A stretch of DNA of 63,323 nt, filler included, from Kipferlia bialata (Eukaryota): NCBI GenBank assembly GCA_003568945.1. It is 5 parts of 5 records of this genome, joined end to end, with 100 filler letters (N's around TTAATTAATTAA, not from the genome) between each part and the next. Parts side by side here need not be neighbours in the genome. Positions count along the whole stretch, not along the records: positions 1 to 14,367 come from BDIP01000827.1; 4 more parts are not named here. One strand, written 5' to 3'. The notes below the pieces were generated by a model. The model saw nothing but the letters and a program-made list of their open reading frames with translations, was not told the DNA's origin and did no database searches. This document shows, one piece after another, positions 1,711 through 34,415 of the stretch (its first letter is position 1; every line of letters begins with the position of its first letter). Position numbers and translations under genes: made by a program.

Positions 1711-2806
1711 ATGGTGAGTGCATAATAATGAGTGTATGGGGTTGGGATGTATGTTCTTGCCATAGTGATTGTCCTCACATATATCGATACGGCATGTAAC
1801 AATCATGTGAAGTGTGTGATTCTAAGAATAGAAACGTGCAGGGAACTGTACACCGCTTCTTTACTCACTGTAGTCACCTCCATATTTCGGTCTCTCCCAC
1901 TCTCTCTCCCCTTATCTCCTCCTTCCATTCCCTAGCTCTCTTCTGATTCAGCAGGGAATACCGATTCTAGCCATCCGCCTATATGTCTCTCGACGCATAA
2001 TCCCCCCTTCATCTCTCTGCCCCCCCCCCCCTCTCTCTGCCTCTCTCTCTCTCTGTGGCATCCCCCTACATCTCTTTGTATAGGTCTTCTTTCCCTCAGG
2101 GAACTGCTGCCTCCTACTACTCACTCTCTCTCCCTACATTATTGTGTATGTGAGATAGTATGTATTTCTCTCATGCTAGGGAACCGCTGCCTCGTATGTC
2201 GCCCCTTCCAAGCCCAGGTCATTCCTCACAGCCATCAACTGCATGGACGGGAGGTATGCACTGTGTACATTATATAGTATACTAACTGTAATGATGATTG
2301 TTTCTATGTATGTCCCCAACTGCATGGATGGGAGGTATTTTCATACGTATACTATATACTATTAAGTAATATCCTTGTATGTCACACGCTTCTCTACCCA
2401 CTTTCCCTCTGCTCCCCCCCCCAACCTCTCCCTCTAGTATCAAGGCACAGGTCGTACTGTGGTCTATCTCTCCCTATTCTCTCTCTTACCCTCTCATCCT
2501 CTACTACCAGGACCCAGATCCAACTAATCAGATGGATCGTACACTTCTTTGTTTTCACTCCCTCTCTCTCTTTCTCTCACTCTATCTCTCACTCTATCTC
2601 TCTATGCTCCTCTAATACCAGGGCCCAGATCCCACTGATCAGGTGGATGATGGAGAAGTTTGAGGTATGAATATATGATATTATATCACTAATGCTGACC
2701 TCTCTCTCCCTCTCCCTCTATATGTGTGTATATTTACCATTCCAATATATACTATTCCTTATGTCTAACAATAGGGTGACTACGTAGACTCCATCACCGA
2801 GGCTGA

Positions 2807-2842
<36 letters not shown>

Positions 2843-4355
2843 GTGTCGTATATATATATATCTATATGTATTATACTCTAACATATCTAATTATAGGGTG
2901 ACTATGTGGACTCCATCACTGATGATGACCTCTCTATCTTCCTCTATCCCCCTCTCTCTCTATATATATAATGACATATATATGTGTGGGTGTACTATGT
3001 ATATATATCTAACGCCAGGGTGACTATGTAGACTCCATCACTGAGGCAGGGCCTGTCAGGTTCTTCGCCATGGGAGACAGTGCACCCCAGAAGCACAGGT
3101 GGATATAATATATTCCATGCATAACAGATACTGTCTCTCGATAGTGCATGTGTGTATATATGTTATATCCACTCACCCCAGAGACATATATGCCAACATG
3201 ATGGAGAGGATCGACATCAGTGTGCACAAGCACGGGAGCAGGTAGAGGATACATATAGTATAGTATATATATACTATAATATGTACTATATATGTATATA
3301 TATATAGGATAGACATCAGTGTGTACAAGCATGGGAGCAGGTGGGTATTTATATGTATATATTTATTATATATATACTATACTATGTAATATATGTATAT
3401 CTATGTATGGGATCGACATCAGTGTGCACAAGCACGGAAGCAGGTATAGTATCCATATAGGTCTACATTCACAGTTTATCGTCTCTGAGAAAGCACGTTC
3501 TCTCTCTCCACACTCTTAATAGTTCTTAACCCCAGGGTCATCATCATTGCTGCCCATCCATCCTGTGCTGGCAATGTGTGCTGTGACAAGGATCAGGTAT
3601 ATACTATATATATATACTATATTATATAGATACTATATATATATAGTTTATATAGAGTATATATAGTATGCAATGTGTGCTGTGACAAGGATCAGGTATG
3701 TATATTGCTATATGAACTCTCTATATACGTACGTACATATAGTATGTCCCATTAATTACATTCTATGTGTACTGTGACAAGGACCAGGTATGAGATATAT
3801 ATGTGTTGATTAATGCGTGTGATTGTTACTATATAGTTCCATGTATTATTTGCAAGTATGTATATGTGTGTTGTGACAATGACCAGGTATCGTGTGTTCA
3901 CGTCTATCCATATATACATATAGCATCTGATAGCTCTCTAGTAGTATATTTCGAGACTACCACCATATATATATGAATTTTGAAGTTGTATATACAATTG
4001 AATTAGTTGTAACCCCCAGAAGACCCAGCTGCACCAGGCCGTGAGGACTCTCAAGGGTCTGTACCCATCCTGCAGGGTGGAAGGTACTCTCTCTCTCTCT
4101 CTCTCTCTAACTCTAACTCTAACTCTATGGATATTCGTATACCTAGACACATACTTAGACTTCTCGTCTTCTCTCTCTCCCCCTCTACACCCTTAATGCC
4201 AGGTGTATGGGTGTCTCTCTAACTCTACACCCTCCATTCATTTATACATTGGTCGCTCTCTCTGTCCCTCTACACCCTTAATCCAAGGTGTGTGGGTGTG
4301 GCCTGACAGTGGCAAGGACTGGGAGGACGTGGAGGTGGTGGTCATAGCGGAGTAA
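1711..4355 (+). CDS. Putative carbonic anhydrase, prokaryotic beta-CA-like family (Pro_CA_2-like), about 8 exons
   Basis: Spliced product M|GTAASYVAPSKPRSFLTAINCMDGR|AQIPLIRWMMEKFE|GDYVDSITEAGPVRFF..|..ERIDISVHKHGSR|VIIIAAHPSCAGNVCCDKDQ|KTQLHQAVRTLKGLYPSCRVEG|VWVWPDSGKDWEDVEVVVIAE*. Contains the C-x-D-x-R and H-x-x-C zinc ligand motifs of beta-type carbonic anhydrases. The ATG-only first exon at 1711 is inferred. Confidence 0.8.
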
Positions 4356-5013
4356 GATGCACTCTATCATGGCGTCCCTATCTGCCTCTATATTGAAGAG
4401 ACTCTCTACTTGAGAGAGAGAGAGAGATGGAGGTGGCAAGGACTGGGAGGACGTTGAGGTTGTAGTCATCGCAGAGTGAGGGGGAGATAGAGAGAGAGAG
4501 AGAGAGATTAAGGTCGTAGTCATAGCAGAGTAGGCAGACAGATGCTTGATGGTGTATTAATAGACAAGACAATTACCTGAGGAAGTGTGGTTTTAGTATG
4601 GACTCCATAGTATGGAGTACGAATCATACTATGGAGTGTGTGTTGTATGAGATGATTAATGAATTTATGAGAGTTCTCTCTGAGAACTATCAGGCATTGT
4701 GGATACTCTACCATTGATATACGATAGGGCTGATGATCCCAAGTATTCAGCCAAGACCCAGAGTCATGTAATAATTATCATTGCTAACCGGCCTATTGCT
4801 TCCACCAATACTGATGGTGTTGATGATAGTGATTTTCAGCCATTGGGACTTCATCAGCATTGCTGACAGCAACACTACAGTATAGTACATACTCTATTTA
4901 CAACAAGAGTGATATCCTCAGACGGCGGCCACCTCTCACAATCTCCAGTGGAGATTCTCCACTGACACTCTCTCATTCACTGTCTTATAGTCACAGTATA
5001 TATACTAGACCTA

Positions 5014-5818
5014 ATGGATCCAGCAACACTGCGTGAGAGGGCTGTCCACGCCCTCCGCTACTCCTTCCTAGGGGATTCTCTCTCCATGCCTGTGCACTGG
5101 TACTACAGCGTGGCAGACATATACAAGGCATTTGAGGTGGGTTAGTTACCTTCAAAAGCACACATTCACCTAACCCCTTAGAGTATAGAACACCATAGTC
5201 ACCTCTTATGATACAGGGTGGTGTCACCAAGCTGGAGTCCGCCCCCACCCTCCACCCCTCCTCCATCATGTCCCTACACTCCACTGCACATGGGGGGAGA
5301 GAGGGGACAGAGGGAGGTAATAGTGATACTAGGCCTACTAATACTAATACTATTGCTGATGAATACCCCTCCTCCATCATGTCTCCAGAGCACATGGGGG
5401 AAGGCAGGGTCTCTTTGGGAGGTACTACAATATATGTATTGGTAATTACCATAACTATTTTACTAATATATACTGCACATTGGGGCAGAGAGGGTACATC
5501 TGGAGGTAATGACACTAGGCCTAATAATACAGATACTATTGCTGATGAATACCCCGAGGTATACATTTTTCCTATACACCGTAGAATAGTGACACACTAG
5601 TACGTATTGTATGTGATCATAATATTCATAGGGATGGACGCTGCACCTGGGGGTAGGCAGGGTACTTTTGGAGGTATTAGTACCAGTTAGTGGGATACAT
5701 TTATAACTATATGTAGTACTGATTACAGGCACCACGGAGATAGTGGGTGACGTGATACTCAAGGGCAAGAGGCAGTACTGGGGTGTGGCCAACATGCACT
5801 ACCACCAGGGGATGAAGG

Positions 5819-5850
<32 letters not shown>

Positions 5851-7674
5851 TTGATATTGTATACAGAGCTGAATACCCTTTGAATTCAGTGTGATTGAAT
5901 CACTGATTCTAGTGCAGACAGTCGTCATATATACCCAACATGCACTACCACCAGGGGATGAAGGTGGGGGTTGTGTGTGATACAGTGCTACATTAACCAG
6001 TGATCAATAATGATTAATCCGTTATTAATAATCACTGTAGATTATGTGTAATTATACTGACATGCACTACCACCTGGGGATGAAGGTGTATATATTCATT
6101 GTATACAGAGCTGAATTCCCTTTGAAATCCGTGTGATGATATTGCAGACAGTAGACAATCTTCCCAACCTGCACTACCATCAGTGAATGTGCAGGGCTTA
6201 TGAATATTCTTATACATTAATCACTGTACTACAGTCTGTAGATTCTGTGAGATTAGACTGACACATAGGCAGGAGAGAACACCCTCAACCTACAGTGTGC
6301 CAGACTGGTACTCAGGGAGGTGGCACAGGTATCATTGTCAACCAGTCATATTCATTGAGTACTAACTTATCAATATTTACTATTTAGTGATTCAGTTTTC
6401 ATACACTGCCTTAGGTATCTGATACTTTACCTAACACCAGGGCCCCTACAACGCCGACACCTTCCTCTCAGACACATATATGTATATTCACTAGCACTTA
6501 TTATTTACTATTCAACCTATGCAAGGTACTACATTCTCCCTACCACCAGGGCCCCTACAACCCAGACACCTTCCTCGCTGACTACGTCGCCTACATGACT
6601 GCTGACCCCCCTGCATACCATGACACATATGCAGAGTCGTTCCACAGAGGGTTCTTCGACAACATGCAGGGCGGAAAGTACGTTATATTGCGAAGAATAC
6701 TACCCTATACAGTGTAGATGTGCTCTCCACAAGTATTTCTTGTAATTACAGTCTAACTTGTAATATACAAGTTCACTTGCCGATATATCCAGCAAGAACC
6801 TTAGTAGCAGTTACAGTACCGGTGATTCTTACTCTAGGGATCTGCACGAGTGCGGGGCAGCCACGCATGACACAGCATCCATTGGGGGTGAGTAGTGTAT
6901 ATTGTGTAGCACATACAGTATCATAGCATTGAATCACTCTTGACAAGAATCTTGTACATTCACTGATGACACTGTGAAGAGGTGTTGTATGTGTATAATG
7001 AACCTCGTCTCACACTCAGGTCTTGCCACCATAGCACCCCTGGCCCTACCCTCCCTTCTCAGAGGCATGTCTGTAGTAGATGTCCAGAGAGTCTGCCGCA
7101 CACACCTGCACCTTACACACCCATCTGATACTCTTTACAGTGTGTGTGACGACTATGTGAGTCTGATCTCTGAGCTGCTACACATAGAGGAGGGTATAGA
7201 CCCTAGTACAATTGTAGAGGCATACCTCCTCAGCGCATCTCCCACTGCCACACCAGCAGAGTGGATGAAGAGTGCCAAGGACACTGAAGTAGTCGGTGGT
7301 GTCTACAGCCCTGCCTGCTACATATCGGACTCGTGGCCATCCACACTCTACCTGGCATACAAGTACCTACACTCCACTGGTCCAGACTCTGTGAAGCAGG
7401 GTCTCCTTGCCAACGCCAATGTAGGTAAGTGAAAGACGATATTAGTCGCCAAGACGTCAGTCTCTCAGCTGGTAATGGTATTGTACACTCTTACTGAATA
7501 ATTGTAAGACTACTGTATATACATACTAACCCAGGTGGTGACAACTGCCACAGGGGTGCAGTCCTGGGTGTGATACTGGGCCTATGCACTGTGGACACTG
7601 AGGCTGACACTCTCTACTCTGGCCTTGTAGAGCATGACGCCATTGAGAAGGAGATACAGACAGCCATAGAATAA
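5014..7674 (+). CDS. ADP-ribosylglycohydrolase (ARH/DraG/crystallin J1 family)
   Basis: Exons encode FLGDSLSMPVHWYY, HYHQGMK|AGENTLN, HDTYAESFHRGFF, SPACYISDSWPSTLYLAYKY and LLANANVG|GDNCHRGAVLG, matching the GDAL..P and N-x-GGD-x-x-x-RG motifs of this family. Stop TAA at 7672-7674. Confidence 0.88.
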
Positions 7675-8012: not shown

Positions 8013-8871
8013 CTACTGCTCCCTCTTGGCAGCTGGGGCCCTGTCTCCACCTCTGTCTCCTCTGTTGCCAAAGGAGCGCTTGCCTAGAGGTTAATACTAA
8101 ATACCTCTCGCATTCAAAAGTAAACAGGAGCGCTTACTGCAGCTAGAGGCTACAGAAGATATAAATATATATATTGTGTTGGTACCTCTGAAGCCTCCAC
8201 GTCCGCCTCTGCCACCACGGAAGCCACCACGGCCCCTGCCGCCTCTGAAGCCACCTCTGCCTGGGGTTACAGGGAGAGTGACAAGAAGACTCACACACAT
8301 AATAGAAGAAGACACTTATGCCTGGTGATACAGAGAGAATGAACAGCACTAACTCAATAAACACACTTCTAATTGAAACCCAAATAATGAACTGTAAAAC
8401 GTATAGATGCATACCTCTGCGGCCACCCCTGCCGCCTCTCGTGCAAGGTTATGTATATATGTATAATTCTATGTATATGTATATATGAATAATACTACTA
8501 TACATATATAGTGCATACCTCCACGGCCACCCCTGCCGCCTCTCCCTCCCCTTCTTCCTCCACGGCCACGACCACCACGGCCTCCCCTGGGGTGAGTAGG
8601 CTCTACACACGAAAACTGTATATCTACAAAATGATACCCGCTGAATGTAACACAAAACACATGGCTAGATCAATACACTATAACACTATAACAATAATGC
8701 ATTACTATTATAATACCTGAATCCCCCGCTCTGTCTGTGTCCAGACCATGATTCATAGATACACATAATTAGACCAGCAAATAATCATATATTACTGTAT
8801 CTATCACGTTATTATTACTATATTGTACCTGAATCCGCCGCTCTGCCTGTGTCCAGACCATGACACATACT

Positions 8872-8902
<31 letters not shown>

Positions 8903-10520
8903 AACTTTAGAATGTATTGCTATATATATATAGTACCTGAATCCCCCGCTCTGTCTGTGTCCAGACATGCCTCTCTATCTCTCATATTCACACGAAAGAT
9001 ACCTCATAGACAGTATATAGTACAGGTTAACATAGAAATACCTGAATCCCCGCTCTGCATTCTAGTATAAGTAACTACTATTAACTACTACTATACCTGA
9101 ATCCGCCGCTTTGTATACACGTATAGGACTAATATTATATGTAGTACCTAAATCCGCCGCTCTGTCTGTGTCCAGACATGCCTCTCTGTATATCTCTAAT
9201 TCATACAAAAATACTTCACATATAGAAGTATATAGTACAAATTAACAGAGAAATAACTGAATCCCCGCTCTGCATTCTAGTATGAAAAACTATTATGAGT
9301 TACTATTTCAATACCTGAATCCCCGCTTTGAATACACGTATAGGACAAATATCAATATAGTACCTGAATCCCCCGCTCTGCATTCTAGTATAAGTTTCAA
9401 TACCTAAATCCAGCATAAAATTACTATATAGTACCTGAATCCCCCGCTCTGCCTGTGCCCAGACATGCCTCTGTCTCTGTCACCCTCTGTCCTGGGGGCA
9501 ACATAGGACATCATCTGAGGGGTGAGGTTATACATGTATGTAGAATGAGAGAGCGACAGTATAATGGAAGAATTATGAAAGGGCGACATATGACATCATC
9601 TGGGGGGTGAGGGAATATATTCAAATGCTTATATACTATAAGTATGTAATAGTTACAAAGGTTTATAGGACATCATCTGAGGGGTGAGGGATATATATAT
9701 GTATATACATTATTAATACACTAAGAATAGAGTTATGGTTGTAATTGTTACACAGGCCCATAGGACATCATCTGGGGTGAGGGTACTCATATATTCAGCT
9801 AGAGAGAGAGAAACACAGTATATAATGGAAACACACACTGCAAGAATTATGAAAGGGTAAAATAGGACATCCTCTGAGGGGGGTGAGGGTACATACACAT
9901 ATATACTCGGTATATATCAACAGTCACAAAGGTCCGTAGAACATCTACGGTGAGGTTACATCAGTCAATGTATGTAGAAAATCGATGTTCTTATTGATAT
10001 ATAGTCACTATATATACCTGGTTCTCTGGGCATATGTCTGCATCAGATGGCAGCACCAATATCACATACGTATATACATGTATATATATGTGTATTAATA
10101 CATATGTATATATATGTGTGTGTAGACCTGGTTCTCTGGGCATATCTCTGCATCCTCGGGTAGCACGACAAGGCCAGCCTTCCCAGAGGGGACAGAGGGG
10201 GGGTACTCAGTGCCCACAAACCTAGGGGTTAAGAACCGTAAATATATATATATATAAATAGACATATATATATATAGAGAGAGAGAGAAAGGACAGAGGG
10301 GGGGTACTCAGTGCCCACAAACCTAGAGGGTTAGGACTACAGTAACAGGTTTGCATATACCGAGATATTACCTGTTTGCCTCGAAGTTGTATCCGATGAG
10401 GTCGTCTCTACCAATATTATTACATATACTTATAATTATTACAATGGATATATATATGAGTATATATAATTTTGTACCTGTTTGCCTCGAAGTTGTATCC
10501 GATGAGGTCGTCTCTACCAA

Positions 10521-10733: not shown

Positions 10734-10852
10734 TGAGTGAGTGAGAGAGACTCTTCCAATGAGGGACCTGAGCACAACGGTGGCATAGCTGGAGATTAGA
10801 GAGAGAGAGAGAGAGANNNNNNNNNNNNNNNNNNNNNNNNNNNNNNNNNNNN

Positions 10853-10893
<41 letters not shown>

Positions 10894-12430
10894 GTGAGTG
10901 AGAGAGATTCTTCCAATCAGGGACCTGAGCACAACGGTGGCATAGCTGCAGGTCAGTGCATATAGATTTGTAGTATATGGAGACATATATCAGGGACCGG
11001 GGAGCACATGTGGTTGGAGTACCCTTTATCGAAATATGCCAACATAAGTGTATCTATATACAACCACAGTACCTGCTGGATCCGAGTGTGAATCTGACGT
11101 GGAGAGAGACAAAGTGGCCATCCCTTGGGGGGACAACGACCTGGGTGAGGTATGGTAACATATGTAGTGAATAGTTAATGAGCGTCAAGCACTTGTGTAG
11201 ACCACAACTGATAATTGTGCACATGTACAGTACAGAAATAGTATCGTGCAGTTATTTAAATGATAAAGTGGATACCTTCACGGGCTCCTCAACCTTCTCC
11301 TCTGGCTTGGCCTCAGCCTAGATAGTGAGAACATGGGTGTATACATATGATATGACATAATGAAAATACATACGATATGATATAAGAAAGAAACTCTGAA
11401 CATGTACAATCTTTGGATAAGTGATATGTTTACACTCTTCACAAAGGACAAATTGCTAAATGAAGAGACCATAGTGGCTATACCTCAACCTTCTCCTCTG
11501 GCTTGGCCTCAGCCTCAGCCTGGGGTTAACAAGTGGAATTAATCGATGCATTTGTAATACACAATACCTTCATCTCTACGTCTCCCTCGGCCACCACGGC
11601 CTCAGTCTTGGGCTCAGCCTTGGGTAAGAACAGATACATACCAACCATTACGGATACGGGTGTACGTCAATATCTCTATTTCACTACCAGAGAGGGTACG
11701 GCAATTACACAAATGCTAAAGAATACGATATGAATACTTGATAGTGTCCAGATAGTAAAGAAAAATGTATATACCTCGGCCTCTGCCTCTGCCACTGGCT
11801 CAGCTGCCTTCTTCTCAGGCTTGGTCTCCTCAGTGACAGGCTGGTATGAATATATACATCTATATATATATAATATGAATAGGGGTGTGGAGGCAGAAAT
11901 GAACGACTAGCGGTATTACATGGTGAATAATGAGATATACAAGAGAGATTGTACCTCGGCCTTAGGCTCCTCAGCCTTCTCCTCTACATGCTTCTCAACA
12001 GGCTTCTCCTCCTCCTTCTTCTCCTCTACCTTGGGCTCAGGCACAGGCTGCATGTGAGTATACATACATATACATATGTATCTATCATTAGTAACGAGTA
12101 TTGCAATGGTATATCACAATATATGTATATATTGAGGGAGAGAGAGAGAGTATATGTACCTCAGGGAGTGGCATTGCCACGCACACCTCCTCAGGGAGAG
12201 AGAGAGACAGTGCCTGGTTGGCACGGACAAAGGCCTCCTCGGGGAGAGAGAACATGGTCCTGGGAATAAGGGTGTAGGGGGAGAGCACCAGTGTAAAGTA
12301 CCTTATCCCTTTCCTACAAATCTATTATTGACTATTATAATTACTAAACATATATATGAATATGTGCAGTATATATTTGTGTATACCTCTTGACCTTGTG
12401 TACTACCATGGCCATGTAATGGATTAATGC

Positions 12431-12471
<41 letters not shown>

Positions 12472-13049
12472 TCTAATACAAATTGTACATATATACCTCT
12501 TGTCTTTGTGCACCACCATGGCCACATCGATGTCAGACACGGAACGGATGACCTAAGGGTTAGTGTATACGCATACACAGCACATATTAACGGAGAATAG
12601 TTTCATACATTTACAGTACCCTAGGCCGAATGCTTCTTATTAAAGAGAAAGGAATTACATAGGTCTATACACATATAAACCTGTCTGTATCTTCCAGTGA
12701 CGCACATGTCCTTGGGTGCCCTAGATAGAGGACTATGCACACCTATGCACTCTATATATACATGTATATATATACATATATATAATGTATATATACCTGT
12801 CTGTATCTGCCTGTGACACACATGTCCTTGGGTGCCCTAGGAAGATGACTACTATATATACATACACACCCTACATATACGTATATACAGTGTATACTTA
12901 CACACCCTACATATACGTATATACAGTGTACACATATGTACTTGTATGTATATGCATATATACCTGTCTGTATCTCCCAGTCACACACATGTCCTTGGGT
13001 GCCCTGGGCAAAAGACTTTCTATATCTATATGCTCTATATGTCTATGGA

Positions 13050-13086
<37 letters not shown>

Positions 13087-14285
13087 TATACCTGTCTGTA
13101 TCTCCCAGTCACACACATGTCCTTGGGTGCCCTAGGTAGAGGACTACTATATATACTTACACACCCTATATATACATATATACAATATATACATATAATT
13201 ACCTGTCTGTATCTCCCAGTGACGCACATGTCCTTGGGTGCCCTGGGCAGAGAGTCAAACCCATGCTCAAAGCCATCGGCCTTGAGCAGCTCGTTGATGT
13301 ACTCGCCTAGGGGGTTAGAGGAAGACATAAATATATCAGGCTATATGTATACTTGTAGATATCCATGTACCTATCTCTCCCTTGGGCAGCAGGACTATCC
13401 TACAATAATAACCATTTACAAATATTTACATCTACGATACTATTTGTATACATATATATACATGTTCCTATCTCTCCCTTGGGCAGCAGGACATCCCTAT
13501 ATAGAAATATTCATACATTCCATACACGCACATACACGAATAGTAATAATATCAGGGATACATATGTGTACCTATCTCTCCCTTGGGCAGCAGGACATCG
13601 TGTCCGACAAGGGGCAGTACCAGCTGGGACATGTCTGAGTGTAAGAGTAATGTATGTATATACATATATAAGACACTAAAGATGTATATATGTACACTTG
13701 TATACACATAAGAATGATTTAGTACAATCCGGGACATGTCTGGGGTTAGACACCAAATGTAAAGTGAATATATAGTATATATACTATATATAGTATATAT
13801 AGTATATATAGTATATATACTATTCATGTCAATGTATAGGCAGTGACACCCTGAAGTATGTTGATAGAGATGCATATACCTGACTCATCGAAGGGTGTCG
13901 GCTCAGGAACCTCCTCCTCCTTCTCCTCCTCCTTACTCTCTCCCTCTCCCTCCTTCTTCTCTCCCTCTCCCTCCTTCTTCTCTCCCTCTCCCTCCTTGCT
14001 CTCTCCCTCTGTCTCCTTGCTCTCTCCCTCTACCTCCTGCTTCTCCTCAGAGGGTGTGGGGACATGCACAGGCTGAAAAGTGAGGACATACATGTATATA
14101 AATAGACAATTGTACAAATGAAATACTCTAAATAACAATCTATCCATATATACAGTGGGGGTGGGCACAGACACAGGCTGAAAAGTGAGCATATATATGT
14201 GTATAGAGAGAAATGAATATGAAAATAGAATACTCTAAATGACAGTCTCTCCATATATACAGAGGGTGGGGACATGCACAGGCTG
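8013..14285 (-). CDS. PUS7: tRNA pseudouridine synthase PUS7/TruD, C-terminal part, with E/K-rich inserts and RGG tail; 5' end beyond contig
   Basis: Exons QLVLPLVGHDVLLPKGEI|GEYINELLKADG..DMCVTGRYRQ and VRFTLGSSS|YATVVLRSL match the TruD C-terminal motifs (VVLPLPG, GxYR, F-x-L-x-x-S-x-YATxxLRE). Then GGFRGGRGRGGFRGG repeats and last exon GKRSFGNRGDRGGDRAPAAKREQ*. Confidence 0.82.
8713..9890 (-). repeat. Array of partial exon-end copies around one PUS7 tail exon
   Basis: About 11 copies of (plus strand) tacctgaatcc(c/g)ccgct at 8713-9450 and about 5 copies of taggacatcatctg at 9504-9880. Confidence 0.9.
12679..13250 (-). repeat. Five copies of exon end (LP)RAPKDMCVTGRYRQ + GT donor
   Basis: acctgtctgtatct..catgtccttgggtgccct at about 12679, 12795, 12962, 13090 and 13201. 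Confidence 0.95.
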
Positions 14286-14367: not shown

Positions 14368-14467
14368 NNNNNNNNNNNNNNNNNNNNNNNNNNNNNNNNN
14401 NNNNNNNNNNNTTAATTAATTAANNNNNNNNNNNNNNNNNNNNNNNNNNNNNNNNNNNNNNNNNNNN
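14368..14467. other. Artificial contig linker (44 N + TTAATTAATTAA + 44 N)
   Basis: Six-frame stop spacer between N runs; identical 100-bp structure recurs three more times. Confidence 0.97.
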
Positions 14468-14520
<53 letters not shown>

Positions 14521-14544
14521 AGGCAGAGAGAGAGACAACCGTAC

Positions 14545-15233
14545 CATGGCTGGAACTGTGAGGCACCACTGCACCGCATCCATACCCACAGAGGTGCCGT
14601 ACTTGGTGGTGATGACTCGCATCACGTCCATGTACATGAAGCGGAGGTAGTCAGCCACCACATCCACCACCCCCAGGCCCAGGCGTTCAAAGGGAGTAGG
14701 GGGCTGCACCTTGATGATCTCCCTACATCTCAATGCATCAGTGTCCATAGGGGTAAGGGCACTATTGGTGAGGGCCCCGTCCAGAAGCAGCTTGAACCTA
14801 GTCAACAGGATGCCATCGGCAGCCTTCCTCCCCCTCATCCGAGCCTCCTCCTTCAACGCAGAGTGCCCCCACGAGGTTGCCCTCCACTCCCCCCCCCTCC
14901 TGCCTGCGATAGTACAGAGCAGTGCGGGTCTTGCAGTAGGATGTCAGCTGGTCTGCCCAGTCATAGAAGGCCTCTACCTTGCTGGTATCCCCTATGTGCC
15001 CCAGGGCGTACCCGGAGTAGGCAGTGCCTGGCCGTCAGGATCATGTTTGACCATGTGAGGGTTATATTCCCACAGAACACTAGAAAGAGAGGAGTGACGG
15101 AATTGTCAGATTGTACTCAGACTATCTGAGTCGGACACATCAGATATACGTGTAATAATTGAAGCATACCGAAATCAAGCCCAACATACACACGCGGGCC
15201 ACTCGAAGAGCTCTCTGAGGGAATCCCCGGCAT
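14545..15233 (-). CDS. HSPA12-like atypical Hsp70, N-terminal part (truncated at contig end)
   Basis: MPGIPSESSSSGPRVYVGLDFG|TAYSGYALG..YCKTRTALYY..SWG..RFKLLL..VVADYLRFM..QWCLTVPAM. The DFGT-x-YSG phosphate-1 loop, KT-x-T-x-L-x-Y, FKL-x-L and W-x-LTVPA are typical of the HSPA12-like clade. Confidence 0.85.
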
Positions 15234-15377
15234 CACTGGTAGTGCTGTCTCTATAGCCTAGAGGGGAGTGTAGTGAAGTCCTTGATGATCACGTAAACTG
15301 TTGACAAGAGGCCGGTATCATTGTATTAGGGCCAGCTGATGATCGGGTAACCTTTCTCTAACACTGTCCCACTTGGG

Positions 15378-18300
15378 ATGCCAGAGCCAACACAGGCTGT
15401 GTCAGCCACGACAAAGGGTGTGCACCTGTGTATCGGGCTGGACATCGGGACCCATTGCAGTGCGGTGGCAGTGAGCCTGTCAACCGAAGGCCGAGTAGAG
15501 GTGAGACACAGACTACAATACTCCCACCCCCACCCCCCGCCACCCTACCTAGATATGTTTTCTCGTGTTTCTATGACTGCCACTTACCGACAGGTGTATG
15601 ACAGCTGGTCAGGCCAGCCCAGCCCCTATGGGAAGGTCCCATCCCACATGACATACAGCTGTAGAGAGGGGGTGTACTACCCTGTCAAGTGGGGACACAC
15701 CTCTTCCCAGGCTACCAGCGATGAGAGCAGTGTACATGTGTCCATGTTCAAGCTACTGCTCGACCCTACGGCTGACCCTGCCCCCCCTCCCCCTGTCCCA
15801 GGTCTGTCCGCAGGGGATATACTGGCTGACTGGCTTAGATACCTCAAGGAGGTGGTGCACAAGAAGGTCACGCGGCAGTGGCAGGGACTGTACACGCTGG
15901 ACACAGCCACATGGTGGGTGTAATCACGTATATCACTCTTTTCATAACGTATACTTCAATGCGTAGTGCCCCTACACGCATACTAAAATGTCAATTACTC
16001 TTGTTCCGTAATTACTCCAGGGAGATTGCTGTTCCCTCCCGGTGGTCCCCCTCGTCCAACCACACTGTACGACAGGCAGCATGCATGGCTGGGTTGGTAC
16101 CACGTCCCTCTGACTTACGGCTGTCTCTGCTTCTGGAGACTGAGGCCGCAGCCCTAGCCCGTGGTGCCCTGCTCGTTGGGCAGAGTCTGTTGGTAGTGGA
16201 TGCTGGAGGGGAGGGCGTAGAGGCGACCCGCATGAGAGTGGTTGAGGGATATGCAGAGGGGGTAACCACCCTATCCACTGACGCTACACACCGCGTGGTT
16301 GTCCCAGCCAAGGATACTGTGGACTCTGTGTTCCTGAGGCACATCACGACACACCTCGGGGCTGGAGCTGAGGAGGCTATGGCAGCTAAGCCTAGGAGTG
16401 TCCGGGGAATCATGGCGCAGTGGCACATAGAGAAGAAGGGACTATCGCTCGACGCTCTGGAGGACGGACTCGTCATAGAGGTATTGTACCCCAATCATAT
16501 ACGTGGGCTGCCTAAACGTACACATCAGTATTTCTCGTTAATACAATTCATGAGTTGGCATGTTTGTGTGCGTAAAGATCGGCTCTCTGATGTCAGATTC
16601 CAAGTAAGATCCTCTCGAAGCTCAGTGAAGAGATGCAAGACCAGCTTGACGAGGACGATGGCATCCTCCTCTCCCTCTCAGACGTGCTCTCCATATACAA
16701 GCCTCACCTGGCTGCGGTCCAATCTGCCATAGAGGAAGTGATGGCACCAGGTCTCAATGTGGACAGGACCGTGCTCGTTGGAGGCTTCTTCAGATCCCAG
16801 TTCATTATGGACCGTGCTATCTCTGGCTACGACGGGAGGACTGGAGCTGTAGCGCACTTCTTAGGTACTCTAGCGCATCATGTTGGTATGTGCACTGAAT
16901 GACGTCTGTTCCTCTTTCCAACACCATGGTTGTGTGCCCACCCAATCACTTACTTCCAGACCCGGCCTTAGCCGTAGTGCTGGGTACATACCTTCATGCC
17001 AAAGACCCCTCTATCCTTGTGTCTACAGCTGAGTCACACCCCGAGACCACCCCTCCGAATATGCTCCGGAGACAGCTCCTGAGGGCACAGTCTGCACATA
17101 GGGTTGTTAACAGGCAGCTGCACAAGGAGAGAGTGTCAATAATCACGCTTCTGGACGAAAGGCAACGTGCTGAGCGTAACCTAAAGAACAGACTGAGAGA
17201 CCTTGAGGGACAGCTTCAGATGGCAAGAGAGGCTCGTACTGTTGTTGATAGGGAGCTTCGTAAGGAACAACTCCTGGTTGCCACACTTCAGAACGAGAGA
17301 CAGCATGCTGAGAGTGGCCTAAAGAACAGAGTAACAGACCTTGAGGGACGGCTCCAAAAGGCCAGAGAAGCCAGTACAGCTGCTAATAGGCAGCTACAGA
17401 AGGAGAAACGCTTGGTGGCCACACTTAGACAAGGGAGACAACGTGGTGATAGTGACCACGAGACAAGGGTGGGTAACCTTCAGAGACAGCTGCAGAAGGC
17501 AGAAGCTGATAGTGCTTCCTCAGAAGCGAGTCTTCATACTGCCATTAGTGCCCTGGAGAAGAGACATAAGGACAGCAAGAAGCCCCAGCCCACACCCGCC
17601 CTATTGCCACTTGGTATCAGTGGTGGATATCAAGAGAAGGTATCAACAGTATACCTGGCCAGTACTTGCTAATGAAACTACTCACATACTCTATCCCACT
17701 GGTACGATGCAGCTTCTGTTGACGCTTTCTCATGTCAGAGAGCAGCTGCAACGGGGCCTCTCACACCAATGTCAGTTACCATCGCCTTCCGTTACGGTCT
17801 ATGCAGCAAGGTGTCCAGCAGTATTAAGGGAAGCAAGGTGGGTTTCAGGCATGGTATAGACAGTGTCAATATGACTTAGAAACACACACCAATTGACCTC
17901 TATCTCGTTGACTATTAATCTTGGTACATTGGTACCACCAGGGTATGAGGGCAATCACACGTGGCTCCGATCTATGGACCAAGCTTGTCAGACAGTGGGC
18001 AGATGTGACTTCATCACCCGGGGTCCTGTCTAGGAAGTCCGACCTCGCTAAGGGGTTAGAGGTGCAGGTGTATGCCGTGTTAGAGGACTACCTTTCCCTC
18101 AAGGACGACAGTGCACAGATACCACTCATGCCCCCTGAGTGCGAGTCCCTCCTCAATGTAGCACGGTGCATCCCGACCTCCCCCTCCCACATGGAACAGA
18201 GACAGGCAGTCATGGGTATGCTGACTTCCCCCAAGTCTTCCGTCCCCATACGTTCTGGTGTACTCGACAGGGATGCTGCCTACACTACCCGGCTGGAAGC

Positions 18301-20398
18301 AGTGCTCTCGCCATACATGGAAGACCACGCTGATGTTGCTGGAAAGATCCTGGCTTCAGCAAGGTACAGTATTAGAATGGTAGCTATACTATTGTCTCTT
18401 TTGGTTTGTGCGTGACGGATACAATTCATCGTGTACCTTGTTTCTCATGTGTAGACTCTGCCTGTACCAAGTGTATGTGATTGGGTACTCTGTGTACCAC
18501 CCAACCCCGAAGGAAGTCAAGTCTGACCTAGAGAGGTAAGTGATCATTGGTGTACGCCTAGATCTGCACAACACCTCGTTCACCAAGTGGATATGCCCAG
18601 CTATACCAGTGCCTAAGTAACGGGTGGATAGAGGACGGTGCCGAAGAGGTGGCAGCAACAGGGCCGTCCAACGTGACAAGCTACGAGTTCATAACAGTAC
18701 GGCCCGGTATGTGTCAGAGAGTGAGACTTTAGAGTCTGGGGTCAGTACCACTTCTGAACAGGACTTATTGTATATGTGATCATATCAACACCAGGTTTAC
18801 GCAATGGTGAGACTATTGTGCTTGGACCCGAGGTCGTTATGAGGAGGACCGTTAGAGAGAGACGCAAGCGAGTAAAAGTGAGGCTCAGCCTCATAGAACA
18901 GCGCCTTGAGACCCTAGAGAGCGGATTGGATGGAAGAGAGATAGTAAAGAGAGAGGAGGGGGTTAGCAGCGTCACCAGAGAGAGTATTGTAGAAGACAGC
19001 ACTAAGATGCCCTCTACCACCATGAGGCTTGAGTCCCCAGTATGTCAGGCCATCAGGGATCCCATGGCAGAGATAAGTTTCAGCCTGCGCCCGATCAACA
19101 GACTGACCCCTAAGTCACTGGACGAGAGCTGCAGTCGTATTGTTACCCTTTTCGCACGCATGGTTGACCCCTCTCAAGGAAGCTCTGTGCCCCTTACCGA
19201 GAGCCAGCTCATGGTGAAGCAGTTAGCCGAGGCCATATATGAAAAAGCATGTCGCAAGAGTGCGTCCTCCCACCTATATGGACTGCTGCTCAGAAAACTC
19301 AAGGACAGAAGAGATTTTCTAGCCGTCTTCCCTGACGAGTACACCAGCAGCGACGGCGGCTTTCCCCCATTCTTCCATGGCTTCCAACACGAGCTGACAG
19401 CCACGAAGACCAGATTAGAGAGGGCGCTGGGCAAGGCAATGGCCGAGTCAACATCCAACCGGCGCATCTGTAACCCCGAACGTCAGCAAGCGGTATGTGT
19501 TGTTTGGAAGGATTAGTCAGCCGGTATACGGTGACACGATGTGTGTGTATGTCTTTGTCTGTATCACTTCACATCTGACTTGAGTCAGTGGTGTTGACAC
19601 AACCATCTGACTCTTCAGGTAACAGAGTATATTTGGCGCCTGAAAGCTTTGCTTGAGCCTGGGGAGGGAACCAGTGCCAACCCCCTTATTCTTCATGAGA
19701 TATCCTTTATCCGGCTCAAGCAGCACATTGTCAACTACACCAAGAGAGAGTTCAAGAACATGGCCCTTATGGATACTATTCTCCTTTCTGACGACTCTGT
19801 CTCAGAGGCAGAGAACCAACACCGCCGTCTCCGCTCCAGGCAGCACTTTTTCGGTAACATCAGATTCATCGGAACCCTCTTCAACCACAACTTCCTGGCC
19901 TGTCGGGTTGTGACAAGTACCTGCCTCTGCACCCTGGCTCTACAACCAGTGCTTACACATGCAGTGCACCGCTATATCAATCACGATATCCTGTCCAGTG
20001 GATCCATGGCCGCCCTGAGGGCCCAGGCCCAGAAGGGCAAGGTGCAGGTCCCCCCCTTCCACACCGTCCACCACATCCAGCAGTTCGCAGACACCTTCGG
20101 AGAGGAGATCTACAAGGTGGACGAGGCTTTCGACTACCAGTTCAACTACGACTCAATCGAGGGTGCCACAATACTTCTGGAGTCCGTTGGGTTTAAGCTC
20201 TGCCAGGCCAAGTATCGTAACATGCAGCTGTTCCCAGGTCACTCCACCTTTACCGTGGAGAACCTACTCACCCTCGTGATTGATGCCTTCCGGGGCATCG
20301 TTAGTGACGAGAAGCACCCCTACTACATCAGATCTCTGCTTGAAGAGACTCTCAGGAAGCATGAGAAGGGATACGTCGACCCCTCCAAGTGCATGTGA
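15378..20398 (+). CDS. Large multidomain protein: divergent HSPA12-like ATPase + coiled coil + C-terminal MIF4G-like domain
   Basis: IGLDIGT, FKLLL, ADWLRYL, IAVPSRW, ETEAAA, VVDAGG and VLVGGF motifs, heptad-rich 17040-17580, then INRLTP..AIYEKA..LYG..FFGNIRFIGTLF..SIEGATILLESVGFKL (MIF4G). The junctions I checked, from 17613 to 19619, are phase-compatible. Confidence 0.72.
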
Positions 20399-20765
20399 GC
20401 GTCCCAAAGGTGGGCGCTGTGGTTCTCGGCTGTCCAACAAGAATGGTACCCTTTACGGCTACACACGATTCTCTCAGCGACTACTGAGAGCTATGTGTGG
20501 GAACAATAGATCTTCGGTAGGGTGGCAATTTGTGAGATGAAGAGAGTCTACTACTGAGTGGATATCGGAGAGTCCGAAAATGATTCGGAGCCGTTTAGTC
20601 TCTAAGGCACTGAGGCTAGCAGATCTACCGTCGTCTTCTTTTGTGCCAACCTACAGGAGGCACCGAGACCCAAGGCCAAACACACACCTGCCAGTAGGGT
20701 AATCATCAACCAAGGGTAGCCAGTAGTAAGCTGAGAGAGAGTCTGTCTAGTCTGTATAGTCAGGT

Positions 20766-21097
20766 ATGCTGAGCTCCTTCAGCTACAAGGACGAGATGGA
20801 GAAAGACAGGGGGGGTACCCCTAGGGGGAGCATGAGGCCAGCGCCCCCTTCCAGAGACCACACTCCTAGGGGATCTGCCTACCCCTCCCAGGCACCGTCC
20901 AGAGCTGGTAGTCCTGGCCCCCAGAGACCCCCTCCCCCTGCCTTCATACCCCCCAGGCCCCTGTACCAGAGCTCCCTACCTCTCTCTCAGCAGCAGATGG
21001 GGTGGCTGGTGTCCCAACTCCCATGCCCCATAGAGGGTATGGCGCAGCACGGGACTGATATTGCGAACAGAGGGGCAGATATGGTGGTCGAGCGGAG
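20766..21097 (+). CDS. Proline-rich hypothetical first exon, runs into an assembly gap
   Basis: ORF MLSSFSYKDEMEKDRGGTPRG..ADMVVERR with coding-like composition, followed by a GT donor-like site, pyrimidine tract and N gap 21203-21310. Confidence 0.45.
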
Positions 21098-21369
21098 GTG
21101 TGGGCTCTTGTCTATGTGTACTCCCCTTTCCCCCTCCCTCCCCTCCCCCCATCACTCTCACACTTCATACATACTACCAACTCTCTCTCTTCTCCCCCCC
21201 CCNNNNNNNNNNNNNNNNNNNNNNNNNNNNNNNNNNNNNNNNNNNNNNNNNNNNNNNNNNNNNNNNNNNNNNNNNNNNNNNNNNNNNNNNNNNNNNNNNN
21301 NNNNNNNNNNAATTTTTTTTTTTCCGTTTTTTTCCCCCCCCCCCCCCCCCCTCCCCCCCTCACCGCAGT

Positions 21370-24300
21370 GACCCTTCCACCGTCAAGGGCAGTCTTGTGG
21401 TCAGGGGCAACCAGATGCTTGTGGAGCTGGCCAAGACCCTCAACGTGGGGTACAAGGCAGTGGGTGAGCTGGTCGTGGCATCCAGCCCAGAGGAGCTGGT
21501 CGACCTGAGGAAGATCTACGAGCAGGGTGGGTTTTGGAGTAATTGGAAGTGATTGTCCTCTCTCTCAGTGTTTTCCCTACTATATATATATACGCTTATG
21601 CATTAGGCCTTGCTAAGGGCATCTGCCACCCACTCTCTGTTCTGAGTATACACAATTGTGTGTTCTGTGCTTAACCACCAGGACTCGCCAAGGGCATTGA
21701 GCTGGAGTGGTGGGACGCTGAGAGGATGTACGCTGAGGAGCCACACCTGGCCCCTGGTCTAGTAGGGGCCATCAATGCACCCACAGCCGGTGTCATCAAC
21801 CCCTACGAGGTATGGACTCTCTCTTCACCCTTCCCTCTCTCTCTCAATCTCTCTTTCACACCCACCCACACACTCTCTCTCTCTTCCTTCTCTCTGTCAG
21901 TGTCTCATCCCCAGCTTGTGTACAAGAGTGCCGCCTGTGCCGTCCTCAACGGATGCCACCTGGCCACAGCAACAAAGTGCGGCACATTATGTATATATAC
22001 TTTGATACTATTTCACTACTGTCCATCGTCTACTGAAGTGCTGGTCTGTCTCTCACCCCAGGTTCCTGTCTGCCTCTCTGGTGCCTGGCTCTGATGGCCA
22101 GAGACTGGTCCACACCGACAAGGGCGACTACTGGTGCAGGTACCCATGTCACTACACACTCAGTGACATGCCATACTGTCTATACATACCCTCACCCCAG
22201 ATACCTTGTCAACAGTGCTGGTCTCTATGCCGATGATGTTGCCAGGGGCACAGAGGGAGTGGAGGGTGCCGAGGGATGGGAGATCAGGCCAAGGAAGGGA
22301 GAGGAGTACGTGCTCGACAGGAGCGTGGCCACACGCTGTCCATCCAGGTTCGTTTATCACACACACACCATCTCTCCCTCACTCTCACCGTCACTCTCTC
22401 TCTCTCTCCTTCTTACCCTCCAGGATCATCTTCCCCATGCCTGATCCCGTGACCAAGACCAAGGGCACCCTGCTCATCCCCACAGTGGATGGGACATGGC
22501 TCGCTGGACCCACAGCTGACATGGTGCGTGTATGTGTATATATAGATATTGTGTGTATGTATTTGTCCCCATCACCAGTGCTGACACCTAGGTGACCGAC
22601 AAGACCGACACGGCCACCTCCAACGAGGGCCTGAAGAAGGTGTTTGGTCTCGTCCGTAACCTCTGTGACAAGGTCGGCCCCTGGGACATCATCTCCTCCT
22701 TCGCCGGTCTGAGACCCGCTGCATACAGACTGGACGACAAGCCCGGCACCAACGACTTCATCATCGAGAGGCACGGCACTGCTGTGCTGGCCGCTGGCAT
22801 CCAGTCCCCAGGCCTCACTGCCTGTCCTGCCATTGCTGAGAGGGTCATTGCCCTGCTGACCGAGGGTGGCCTGGACACAGCCACCCCCAAGGCAGGGTTC
22901 CAGCCTGCCCTGCACGGAGGGGCAGAGGGAGGCATCTCCAGGCTCAGCGACCTGACTGAGGAGCAGCAGAGGAGCAGGTGTGGATGCAGTAGCTGATGTA
23001 GTGTCTATCTCTTTGTATGTCTAACTCCCAGGGCTGCCGCTGACCCCCGCTACACCAAGGTGGTGTGTCAGTGTGAGGGAGTGACAGAGGGCGACATCCA
23101 CAGGGCCATTGACCTGGGCGCCAAGTCTCTGGACGGAGTCAAGTTCCTCACAAGGGCTAGGTATGTATTTTTATTGGTCACTCTCTCTCTCTCTCTCTCC
23201 AAGTCTCCCTCTCTCTCACCCTAGGATGGGACCCTGCCAGGGAGGCTTCTGCACAGAGGGTATCATGGGGATCCTGGCTGAGAGGCTCAACATCGGCCTC
23301 GACAAGGTGGGATCACCACTCCATAGTGCTTACATATTATATGTGTATGTATACATGTATGTATGTATCTGACCCCAGGTGTCCAAGATGGGAGCTGACT
23401 CTGTCCTCTCTGTGGGTGAGATTGGCACACACATCGAGGCCCCAGTGCCAGTGGAGGTGGGCACATGTAGTGTATACATTACACACACACTCATCCATAT
23501 ATACACCATGCATCCCCCTGACCCCTTAGGCCAAGATTGCCGCCACTGAGCTCGAGGGCCAGGCCGACGCCCAGTCAACCCTGGACTCTCTCTTCGACAC
23601 ACCCATAGACACAGTGGTTGTGGGCGGGGGTGCAGCCGGTCTCAGTGCCGCCGTGGCTCTTAAGAAGCAGGGGGTGGAGAGGGTTGTCGTGCTCGACAGG
23701 AACACTGCCGGTGGCGGTGTCCTGCTACAGTGCATCCATGCCGGGTTTGGTCTCAGGAGGTACAAGGAGGAGCTGACAGGGCCCGAGTATGCAGAGCGCC
23801 TCAGTGCCGAGTGCCGCGAGTCTGGGAGTGAGGTCTACTACGAGGCCTTCATCCTGGACATTGCACACGAGGAGGGCGTGGAGACCCCCTTCTCCCTGTC
23901 CTGTGTGTTTGGGGGCAAGGGCATAGCCACCCTCAAGTGCAGGAGTGTCGTCTACACCGCAGGGTGCAGGGAGAGGACCAGGCACACTATCAGGATCCCA
24001 GGTGGAGTCTCTACTGTTACTACCAACCCTTTGGTATATGGATTATATCCCCCTCACCCCCAGGTACCCGCCCCAGTGGTGTGTACACTGCCGGCCTGGC
24101 CCAGAAGCTCATCAACTCAGGTGGCCAGCTGGTGGGCAGGAAGGTTGTCATCCTAGGCAGTGGGGACATTGGCCTGATCATGGCTAGACGGAGTGCTCTG
24201 GAGGGGGCTGAGGTGGTGGGTGTGTACGAGCTGCTGGGCAGGTGCAGCGGCCTCGAGAGGAACAAGGTGCAGTGCCTGGATGACTTCAACATCCCCCTGA

Positions 24301-25642
24301 CTGTGTCCAGCACCGTCACCCACATCTACGGACACCCCCACATCACTGCCGTGGACATATCCCCTGTGGACCCAGAGACACTGAGGCCTGACCTGACCAA
24401 GGCCAAGAGGGTGGAGTGTGATGCCCTGATGCTCAGTGTGGGACTCACCCCTGAGACATCCCTCCTCAACACAATGCAGGTGCCACATATAGTAATATAG
24501 TATTCTATCTATACCGTGGAGACACACTCATCTTCTCTCCCACTCTGTCTCTCTCCCTCCCCCTCACCCCCCAGGTCACCATGCACCCCAGGACCCGTGG
24601 CCCCTGTGTTGACTCCCAGCTCATGTCCCTAGATGTCGAGGGCCTCTTTGTGGCTGGCAACGCCCTCCAGATCCACGACCTGGCAGATGCCGCAGCTGAG
24701 GAGGCAGAGAGGGCCGGCAAGAGCTGCGCCTCCTACCTCAAGGCCAAGGTGGCTGGGACTGTGCCCGCCAGAGAGGGTATGCTCTCGGTCGAGACGGGAG
24801 AGGGCGTCATCTACGCGGTCCCCAACCGCGTAATCCCCTCTGCCCTCGCTAGGGTGTCCTTCAGGGTCAGGAAGCCCATGTCCAACTGTCTGCTGACAGT
24901 GTCTGCACACACCCCCGAGGGAGAGGGAGAGAGTGAGCCTGTGGTGGTTGGCCAGAGGACCGTCCCCCATGCCGTGCCTGGTGAGATGGAGACTGTCATT
25001 CTGGCACCCAAGAAGATGGCCGGCCTCTCCCCCTCTGCCGTCCTCAAGGTGTCTGCCGTTGAGCAGCCAGACGCCACCCCAGCCGAGCCCCTCCCTGAGG
25101 GACACACTAGGGTGGTGCGTACATGCGTCAGGTGCCCTAGGGGGTGCAGGGTGACTGTGGTGTCCAGTGGTCCAGACATCGAGGACATTGTATCTATCAG
25201 GGGCAACTCCTGTCCCAAGGGCAGGGCCTTTGTCATCCAGGAGCACGTACTGCCCCTCAGGTGCGTGTATAGTGTCTATATAGAATATATATTGCTCATA
25301 GTACACTACCCCTTACCCTTATCCCCAGGGTGTTCAGCAGTGCAGTGCCTGTCGTGGGTGGGACTGAGACTAGGTGTCCTGTTAAGCTCAGTAAGGGCAT
25401 CCCCACCTCATCATTCCAGGCTGTTATCGACAGGTAGGCCCTGTATACCATATGAGTTGATGAATATGATCCTACATATAGTTCTATGACGTCTCTTTAT
25501 GTGGTCGAGTATGGCTCACCCCAGCATCCACGCCGTCCCCCCCCTGACTGCCCCTGTGTCAGTGGGAGATGTCATAGTCACAGACGTGGCAGGGTGCGAG
25601 GGAGTGGATGTCCTCGCCACTAGGAACATCCCTGTTCAGTGA
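21370..25642 (+). CDS. Anaerobic glycerol-3-phosphate dehydrogenase fusion: FAD oxidoreductase (GlpA-like) + BFD-like [2Fe-2S] + pyridine nucleotide-disulfide oxidoreductase + DUF1667-like Cys domain; N-terminus in gap
   Basis: [117 protein letters not shown]-like, [31 protein letters not shown]; stop TGA at 25640-25642. Confidence 0.92.
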
Positions 25643-25999
25643 GTGTGATACCGATAGGCACCTATCTGGTAGTGAGGGCAAGATCCCGTGTCAATAGAAT
25701 GTATAGATACTCATGTTCGGAGCAGTTTTCTTAGATTTCCGAGATGAAGGGTCATTATGGAGGTGTTATTAACAGGCACTGTTGTGAAGAGATACTACAA
25801 CACGATCATTCTTCTGCAAATGCGGCACTTGAAATCTTAACGTTTGTAGAAACACCATAAACCCCTTGTGCTATACGGTGAGCGGTCTGGTTCGTCGATG
25901 CGCGATCTCCCCTCTCTACAACTATACTGTTGAGGCCCTCCTGTACATTGCGCGTAGACCCCTATCTCGACAGCTGAAGTGGAGCTGTACTCACGCACA

Positions 26000-28285: not shown

Positions 28286-28317
<32 letters not shown>

Positions 28318-28830
28318 CCTCTCTCCCTCTCTCTCTCACCTCTAAGGTGGTCACATGCACACCCCCATGGCCACTGGCAGTAGGCTGGACACCACAGTCG
28401 ATGAGTACAAGGCCCCGTATCTATACGACAGGTGAGGGGTGGCTTCATGGAATAGTGACCTATCTATACACACACTCTCCCTCTCTTCAAACCCTACGCT
28501 TTCCTCATATCTCTCTCACTCTCTTTCTGCCATCTAACGCTAGGCTGGCCCCTGACCTCAAGCGTCACGGCTCCATTGTTCTAAGTGCAGTGGATAGAGG
28601 GTTGCTGTCCACAGTGGAACTGACCCTGGAGAACAATATGGCAGCCTCCAACAACAGGTGGGTATCTATCTTATATACGGTTGCAGTATCAAATGTCGAT
28701 GTATTCTGACCCCAGTTGGGATGAGGACTATGAGAGCACCCAGATATCCTTCCAGTGGCCCGTGGTGCTGTGCACATCTCCCAAGCACGCCTCCTACCTG
28801 CACGACCTGGAGCCCAACCACCTAGTCACC
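26000..28830 (+). CDS. TMEM62-like calcineurin-family metallophosphoesterase with N-terminal TM helix; 3' truncated
   Basis: Hydrophobic VLFALVLVLGLFVFITI, then WFLQLSDLHL, VVT|GDISD, WVDVRGNH|D, SHFT, GHMH, AVDRGLLS and QWPVVLCTSPK, in TMEM62-like motif order. Confidence 0.8.
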
Positions 28831-28831
28831 T

Positions 28832-28931
28832 NNNNNNNNNNNNNNNNNNNNNNNNNNNNNNNNNNNNNNNNNNNNTTAATTAATTAANNNNNNNNNNNNN
28901 NNNNNNNNNNNNNNNNNNNNNNNNNNNNNNN
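28832..28931. other. Artificial contig linker
   Basis: N44-TTAATTAATTAA-N44. Confidence 0.97.
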
Positions 28932-29061
28932 TATATCTATATCTATATCTATATCTATATCTATATCTATATCTATATCTATATCTTTATCTATATATAT
29001 CACAATCTATATATCTATATCTATATCTACACTGATATATATGTCTATACCTATATATTTA

Positions 29062-29094
<33 letters not shown>

Positions 29095-29106
29095 GTCTAT
29101 ACTTAC

Positions 29107-33847: not shown

Positions 33848-33881
<34 letters not shown>

Positions 33882-34238: not shown

Positions 34239-34278
<40 letters not shown>

Positions 34279-34378: not shown

Positions 34379-34415
<37 letters not shown>

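Follow-up and report, generated by a model that had tools for sequence, protein, structure and literature searches.

The analyzed window is a 63,323-nt stretch of the Kipferlia bialata genome, made up of five pieces, each no longer than about 14 kb, with N-linkers between them (14368–14467, 28832–28931, 43278–43377, and 57715–57814). On the minus strand of the first piece lies a gene modelled as a chain of 17 AG/GT-bounded exons with 448 codons and no internal stop, which sets the reading frame. It is a putative PUS7/TruD-like pseudouridine synthase, given the label in the first-pass annotation and a TruD-like C-terminal motif; the argument needs the reading frame only and not the name, and the N-terminal part of the gene lies outside this window piece. 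One exon of this gene is followed by four copies of its last 47–50 nt, separated by AT-rich spacers of approximately 60–120 nt (Table 1). In the following, the term ghost denotes such a short copy of an exon start or end in a neighboring intron. The five exon ends reported by the first-pass annotation, each with its GT donor, are present on the minus strand, and the internal AG of each ghost and the 40-nt length that it delimits are also as described. A possible sixth, much-decayed remnant of the unit lies at 12620–12630 (−), below the search threshold. Splicing from the ghost 2 donor would extend the exon by 111 nt (13202–13092, −), preserving the frame and encountering no stop, whereas the other ghost donors meet a stop.

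Table 1. Focal array and other exon-edge copies, with positions counted along the window
Feature	Position	Strand	Remarks
Real exon, copy 1	13203–13306	−	AG/GT-bounded; last 50 nt and donor form the repeated unit
Ghost copy 2 of focal exon end	13092–13141	−	Followed by GT; 4 differences, all silent
Ghost copy 3 of focal exon end	12964–13011	−	Followed by GT; DNA contig over 12959–13005 at 2202×, ~5 times single copy
Ghost copy 4 of focal exon end	12797–12845	−	Followed by GT; overlapping DNA contigs at 1323× and 2030×
Ghost copy 5 of focal exon end	12681–12730	−	Followed by GT; sole replacement, Pro to Ser; in DNA contig 12484–12747 at 350× without other letters
Next real exon after focal exon	12497–12552	−	Own exon-end ghost at 12414–12387
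Two ghosts of previous exon's end (real exon 13634–13572)	13371–13495	−	Found by copy search
Two ghosts of an exon start, AG + 36 nt (real exon 10674–10591)	10753–10945	−	Silent CGG/AGG, CTC/CTG, GGC/GGA; skipped by RNA contig
Intron of focal host gene	11141–11275	−	RNA contig joint skipping 135 nt, depth 257
Arrays of end and start ghosts around real exon 9514–9435	8717–9790	−	All four combinations at two silent sites
Two ghosts of last exon's end (real exon 4288–4355)	4433–4533	+	Stop reads TAA, TGA, TAG across three copies
Ghosts in introns of ADP-ribosylglycohydrolase gene (5014–7674)	5365–6473	+	Skipped by public protein model
Second ghost-rich gene, other window piece	29317–34972	−	19 exons modelled, 35436–29107

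Exon-edge copies across five genes

All copy and codon counts refer to five hand-modelled genes (55 exons) on two of the five window pieces, in which ungapped copies of each exon were sought in the flanking non-exon DNA; the remaining stretches were scanned for local repeats only. Copies were found for 31 of the 55 exons, in 38 families with 64 copies (40 downstream and 24 upstream), which include a few weak or doubly counted matches. The copies have a median length of 27 nt, and 50 of the 64 abut the exon–intron junction exactly, with 55 lying within 2 nt of it; no copy was found in the reversed-intron control. The splice dinucleotides were mostly kept (GT in 32 of 40 end copies and AG in 20 of 24 start copies), and the splice sites of the ghosts scored close to the real ones, with medians of 8.9 versus 8.6 for donors and 8.1 versus 8.8 for acceptors. 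On the intron side, the 30 nt adjoining 29 end copies were as similar as unrelated flanks (identity 0.638 vs 0.626), and those adjoining 20 start copies were slightly more similar than the control (0.615 vs 0.565); none reached 0.9 on either side, and some ghost–ghost pairs had spacers in common. The focal array is one clean example of a gene-wide phenomenon, whose extent the first-pass annotation had overlooked.

Ghosts were dense only in the first piece and at 28932–35500, where the introns are TA-rich. The ghost-rich stretches contain 61 and 78 TATA/ATAT per kb, compared with 10–38 elsewhere, where repeats are few; the local-repeat scan of 35500–63323 found four local repeats. The GC-rich piece at 14468–28831 has long exons and almost no ghosts, and contains a coiled-coil ORF with a 138-bp tandem unit (17144–17457), a weak MIF4G match (19598–20395), and an FAD-binding ORF (23530–24153). 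In the second ghost-rich gene, the modelled real exon at 34887–34821 (−) has a GC donor, and the ghost downstream of it, at 34740–34710, retains GT. The segment at 11618–11276 (−) consists of short acidic exons that are near-copies of each other and were modelled as coding; frame-keeping duplication of whole exons seems to be tolerated in this linker.

The ghosts are likely untranslated. The RNA contigs come from a run presumed to be RNA; no run was labelled as RNA among the matches listed. The loose end of one such contig reaches past two ghosts and matches the real copy of the exon start at 10674–10591. The exon chain of the ADP-ribosylglycohydrolase gene is identical to the public Kipferlia bialata protein P0001 at 364 of 364 residues, which means that the public model skips the ghosts of this gene. 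At the end of the last exon of another gene, the ghosts carry TGA and TAG where the real exon has TAA; all three copies also begin GT there, so this may be a donor. The RNA run has no cover over 12262–13740 and the DNA run none over 13006–13377, and these gaps are evidence neither way.

The ADP-ribosylglycohydrolase gene (5014–7674, +) has seven introns and is 54% identical over 360 residues to metagenome loci, and its other named homologs are bacterial. It was likely acquired by lateral transfer, later gaining introns and then ghosts. The seven-exon partial gene at 1950–4355 (+), second only to the focal gene in silent bias (17:4), presumably resembles a bacterial-type carbonic-anhydrase-like family, judging from a motif.

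Codon signature of the copies

Over the 50 aligned columns of the focal array, the distinct variants comprised eight silent changes and one replacement, where a silent share of 0.24–0.30 was expected (p = 8e-5 to 5e-4), and the silent bias exceeds chance; eight of the nine variants fell at third codon positions (p = 0.001). The first-pass annotation had stated that only silent differences occur among the five copies. This was borne out across the 14 codons that it named, which have identical sense in all five copies and vary as listed there (Cys TGC/TGT, Val GTC/GTG, Thr ACT/ACA, and Gly GGG/GGC/GGA, with Leu CTG/CTA/TTG/CTT and Pro CCC/CCT upstream), but not just upstream of them, where it had missed that copy 5 reads TCT (Ser) at a Pro codon.

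The same signature was observed gene-wide. Over 1105 columns, 65 distinct variants were silent and 41 were replacements (expected silent share 0.22–0.28; p = 1e-18 to 7e-13), whereas the frame-shifted controls gave silent-to-replacement counts of 12:94 and 17:89. Variable sites made up 41 of 157 fourfold sites and 34 of 724 zerofold sites, a gap that was present in every base class, and the zerofold/fourfold ratio per ghost–real pair was 0.127. Variants between ghosts alone were biased in the same direction (36 silent to 15 replacement), as were the 37 families other than the focal one when pooled (57:40), the 55 junction-touching copies (57:31), and the GC-neutral changes (14 of 157 fourfold vs 9 of 724 zerofold sites). 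The decay of CpG sites, which had already been doubted for the focal array, was rejected as the cause, given that the gap persists once CpG-prone contexts are set aside (variable sites 18 of 61 fourfold vs 16 of 374 zerofold). The gap held under six alignment settings and was narrowest at the most lenient (78/208 vs 137/896, a ratio of 0.41). It differed among genes, with silent-to-replacement counts of 21:6, 17:4, 10:14, 17:17, and 0:0; two genes were thus much weaker, one of them being the ADP-ribosylglycohydrolase gene (10:14, p = 0.055).

The silent differences were also directional: the real exon had G or C and the ghost A or T in 57 cases, against 13 in the opposite direction. Fourfold GC was 0.69 (109/157) at the exon edges covered by ghosts and 0.54 (200/373) at uncovered edges, and the ghosts were at the background level (0.56). 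The ghosts are unanimous in differing from the real exon at seven silent sites, at six of which they carry A where the real exon has G or C. In two arrays, all four combinations occurred at pairs of sites (four-gamete patterns), and 5 of 28 variable fourfold sites showed three states, which suggests patchwork exchange with several sources.

The replacements had a character of their own. They were non-conservative (mean BLOSUM −0.68 vs −0.53 for the null), which eliminates conservative tolerated substitution, and included three stops against 1.55 expected. They were also overdispersed: 38 of the 64 ghosts had none while carrying 49 silent differences, and four ghosts held 15 of the 44. In gapped alignments, 4 of the 64 copies had an indel, with two of these rows representing one region, and replacements were not clearly rarer beside the junction among the zerofold sites counted (13/359, 17/273, and 4/92). 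The replacements therefore look like a short decay of dead DNA superimposed on a long history as a working exon.

Origin of the ghosts

We favor, as having a slightly better than even chance of being correct, the reading that ghosts arise when recombinational repair uses a diverged allele as the template for an exon edge, and that such repair later refreshes them. Breaks would occur in the TA-rich introns and be mended by recombinational repair on the homologous chromosome, where one broken end would copy the intron together with 15–60 nt of the next exon and then be rejoined out of register, so that the overshoot into the next exon would leave an exon edge inside the intron. The survivors would be only those products in which the first donor or the last acceptor was still in place, and whole-exon duplicates would mostly be purged. 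Later exchange would refresh only the exon-derived part, as the sole part still homologous, and each ghost would have been sampled recently from a different working allele, its sequence having passed most of its history in functional exons.

In a toy model, the zerofold/fourfold ratio did not fall below 0.53 when copying stayed within one lineage and reached 0.129 for allele templates at 5×; the observed ratio was attained when the allele coalescence was approximately five times the ghost residence time. Such a coalescence would entail a silent-site diversity near 0.15–0.2 and exchange between diverged homologs, through sex or long-lived heterozygosity. Dmc1 favors homologs and tolerates mismatches. 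Fornicates are described as lacking NHEJ and Rad51A and as having two Dmc1 paralogs (PMC8516963), and K. bialata is suggested from k-mers to be diploid (PMC5874029).

The allele step itself is what we infer, because no second allele was seen here: three DNA contigs over 10960–12422, at 405–430×, were free of alternative letters and of excess depth on unique exons, and the metagenome matches kept (80 of 156) were all distant (40–51% identical), with no locus from the same species among them. The DNA-run contigs possibly derive from the same sample as the window and are not an independent source. We also count against allele copying the ratio at the lenient alignment, the weak bias of the ADP-ribosylglycohydrolase gene, and the lack of RNA cover over the focal array. 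Moreover, the GC/AT direction of the silent differences shows that real exons and ghosts are not exchangeable, contrary to pure allele sampling; given this asymmetry and the GC-rich covered edges, GC-biased conversion at the junctions, or selection on the real edge, would be needed in addition.

Another reading, which we consider unlikely, is that the ghosts are under continuing protein-level selection, serving in register as reserve exon edges, either in a minority of the mRNAs or as templates for repair, with silent sites that drift toward an intron-like AT content. The ghost donors and acceptors that score like real ones, the direction of the silent changes, and the chance-level intron sides beside intact coding positions are all consistent with this, as are the three ghost pairs, out of 36, whose flanks are most alike: they differ at 7 of 17 fourfold sites and at none of 85 zerofold sites. 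However, start- and stop-side ghosts have no canonical splicing route, some ghosts carry stops or indels, at one start family the copy taken by the RNA contig is the real one, and in another gene the ghosts are left out of the public model. By our own arithmetic, heritable flow-back strong enough to be selected would also homogenize the copies unless diversity were extreme. The fullest version of this idea, a working reserve in which an in-register switch from the exon body to a ghost edge and its splice site, in RNA or while breaks in the TA-rich introns are repaired, would be frequent enough for selection to keep the sense of the ghosts throughout entire genes as a homology-guided back-up layer over spliceosomal splicing, we regard as doubtful.

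The ghosts might alternatively be dead copies of the exon of the same chromosome, with the silent excess arising from fast silent change in the real exon, driven by GC-biased conversion or by selection to out-compete the ghost. The asymmetry in GC/AT direction fits accelerated change in the real exon as well as selection on the ghosts, and both the GC enrichment of the covered edges over ghosts at the background level and the predominance of A where the ghosts are unanimous point the same way. Nevertheless, the GC-neutral changes show the same excess, the differences between ghosts are themselves silent-biased, and the arrays contain reversals and four-gamete patterns. Divergence shows no increase as ghosts lie farther from the real exon (rho = 0.11, p = 0.47), and without acceleration the ratio in the toy model cannot drop below ~0.5. 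We therefore judge such dead copies an improbable source of the signature.

It is very unlikely that the focal ghosts are mutually exclusive 40-nt exons, joined to a donor that precedes the internal AG of the real exon by 18 nt, in frame and with a product six residues shorter. From their sequence, all four ghosts have an AG in register and good donors, and the frame would be kept; however, the required cryptic donor ranks 1 of 52 among real donors, and the ghost AGs, which are inherited from Pro-Arg codons, rank 2–16 of 53 among real acceptors, with a strict branch-like motif at none of the four versus 33 of 53 real acceptors. The same bias occurs in the 37 other families, where no such route is available. 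Ordinary cassette splicing, which the first-pass annotation had discounted, likewise gives no explanation, because a 40-nt cassette shifts the frame, the ghost acceptors are weak, and start and stop-codon copies share the bias.

An assembly artefact, in which alleles or strains were put in series by the assembler, is highly improbable, even though the array is not bridged from end to end by DNA contigs and one high-depth core contig joins 12860 to 12956 by a junction that is absent from the assembly, which leaves the number and order of the copies open to error. Read depth speaks against this artefact, which the first-pass annotation had named as the outcome that would refute its reading: serial alleles should each show a fraction of the single-copy depth, whereas the repeat-core contigs (1323×, 2030×, and 2202×) lie at 3–5 times that depth. 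The unique flanks of the array are a single sequence at ~410×, and one contig at 350× runs without differences through ghost 5, 17 nt of its upstream spacer, and the next real exon. The focal array is probably longer than assembled, as judged from the core depth, which, together with the unassembled unit, suggests recent expansion in this one sample.

Relation to known systems and significance

The structure itself is already known, as the amphioxus "mirage" and, on the donor side, as the human F7-type minisatellite, a precedent that the first-pass annotation, which proposed no mechanism, had not recognized. In the parts of PMC3087553 and PMC3902484 consulted, amphioxus mirages (Adh3, the globins BflGb6 and BflGb9, troponin C, and PGBD5) are tandem duplications across exon–intron boundaries, 5′ and 3′, with splice signals kept, normal mRNA, and unstable copy number; here, the mRNA evidence comes from neighboring loci and that on copy number from one sample, and the units are about 100–170 bp. 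According to these passages, mirages occur in a handful of genes of an animal, whereas here they affect 31 of 55 exons in five protist genes and extend to a stop-codon edge. The BflGb6 units as presented there are clearly conserved in their intron part, whereas the intron part is at chance level here, and the codon-position bias is not mentioned in the mirage passages of the two papers. In the BflGb6 alignment (PMC3087553, supplement 4), inspected by eye and not computed, the real exons of two alleles differ at five sites, all silent, three of the five second-allele states occur in the mirages of the first haplotype, and the mirage differences look mostly silent, which makes the pattern less unique and supports the allele reading.

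Human junction-spanning minisatellites (F7 intron 7, with 37 bp; CBS intron 13; 6-16; LMNB2; and PDGF) are similar in that the donor recurs downstream and splicing takes place at the most upstream copy, according to the portion of PMC1557585 consulted. They differ in that the cases listed there concern the donor side only, F7 includes just four exon bases, and no coding signature is described in that portion. The Rogers model of intron gain by tandem duplication of a proto-splice site (PMC3265369) shares with the ghosts an intragenic tandem duplication hidden by splicing; there, however, the duplicate creates a new intron, whereas here existing junctions were copied and no new intron was shown. 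Our literature search, over mostly open-access papers, found no report of such density, of a protist case, or of the codon signature; the original mirage paper (PMC117041) may discuss silent bias. Silent donor cassettes, such as pilS, vls, and the VSG pseudogenes, are unexpressed partial copies that exchange sequence with an expressed gene and store amino-acid diversity. The ghosts, as probably unexpressed partial copies, resemble them, but show silent diversity at the exon edges of ordinary genes.

The arrays constitute a natural test of splice-site choice, in that donors and acceptors of equal strength go unused on either side of an exon, which points to exon definition. A reduced spliceosome, with 87 of 174 proteins, is reported in PMC6679479. 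Exon-edge copies can also mislead gene prediction and dN/dS screens for "hidden exons". If copying from diverged alleles is the correct reading, the introns of one clonal genome record other alleles, and the coding appearance of mirages would have a general explanation. One assembly would then suffice to estimate population diversity and exchange between homologs, whether by cryptic sex or through long heterozygosity, in this free-living relative of Giardia.
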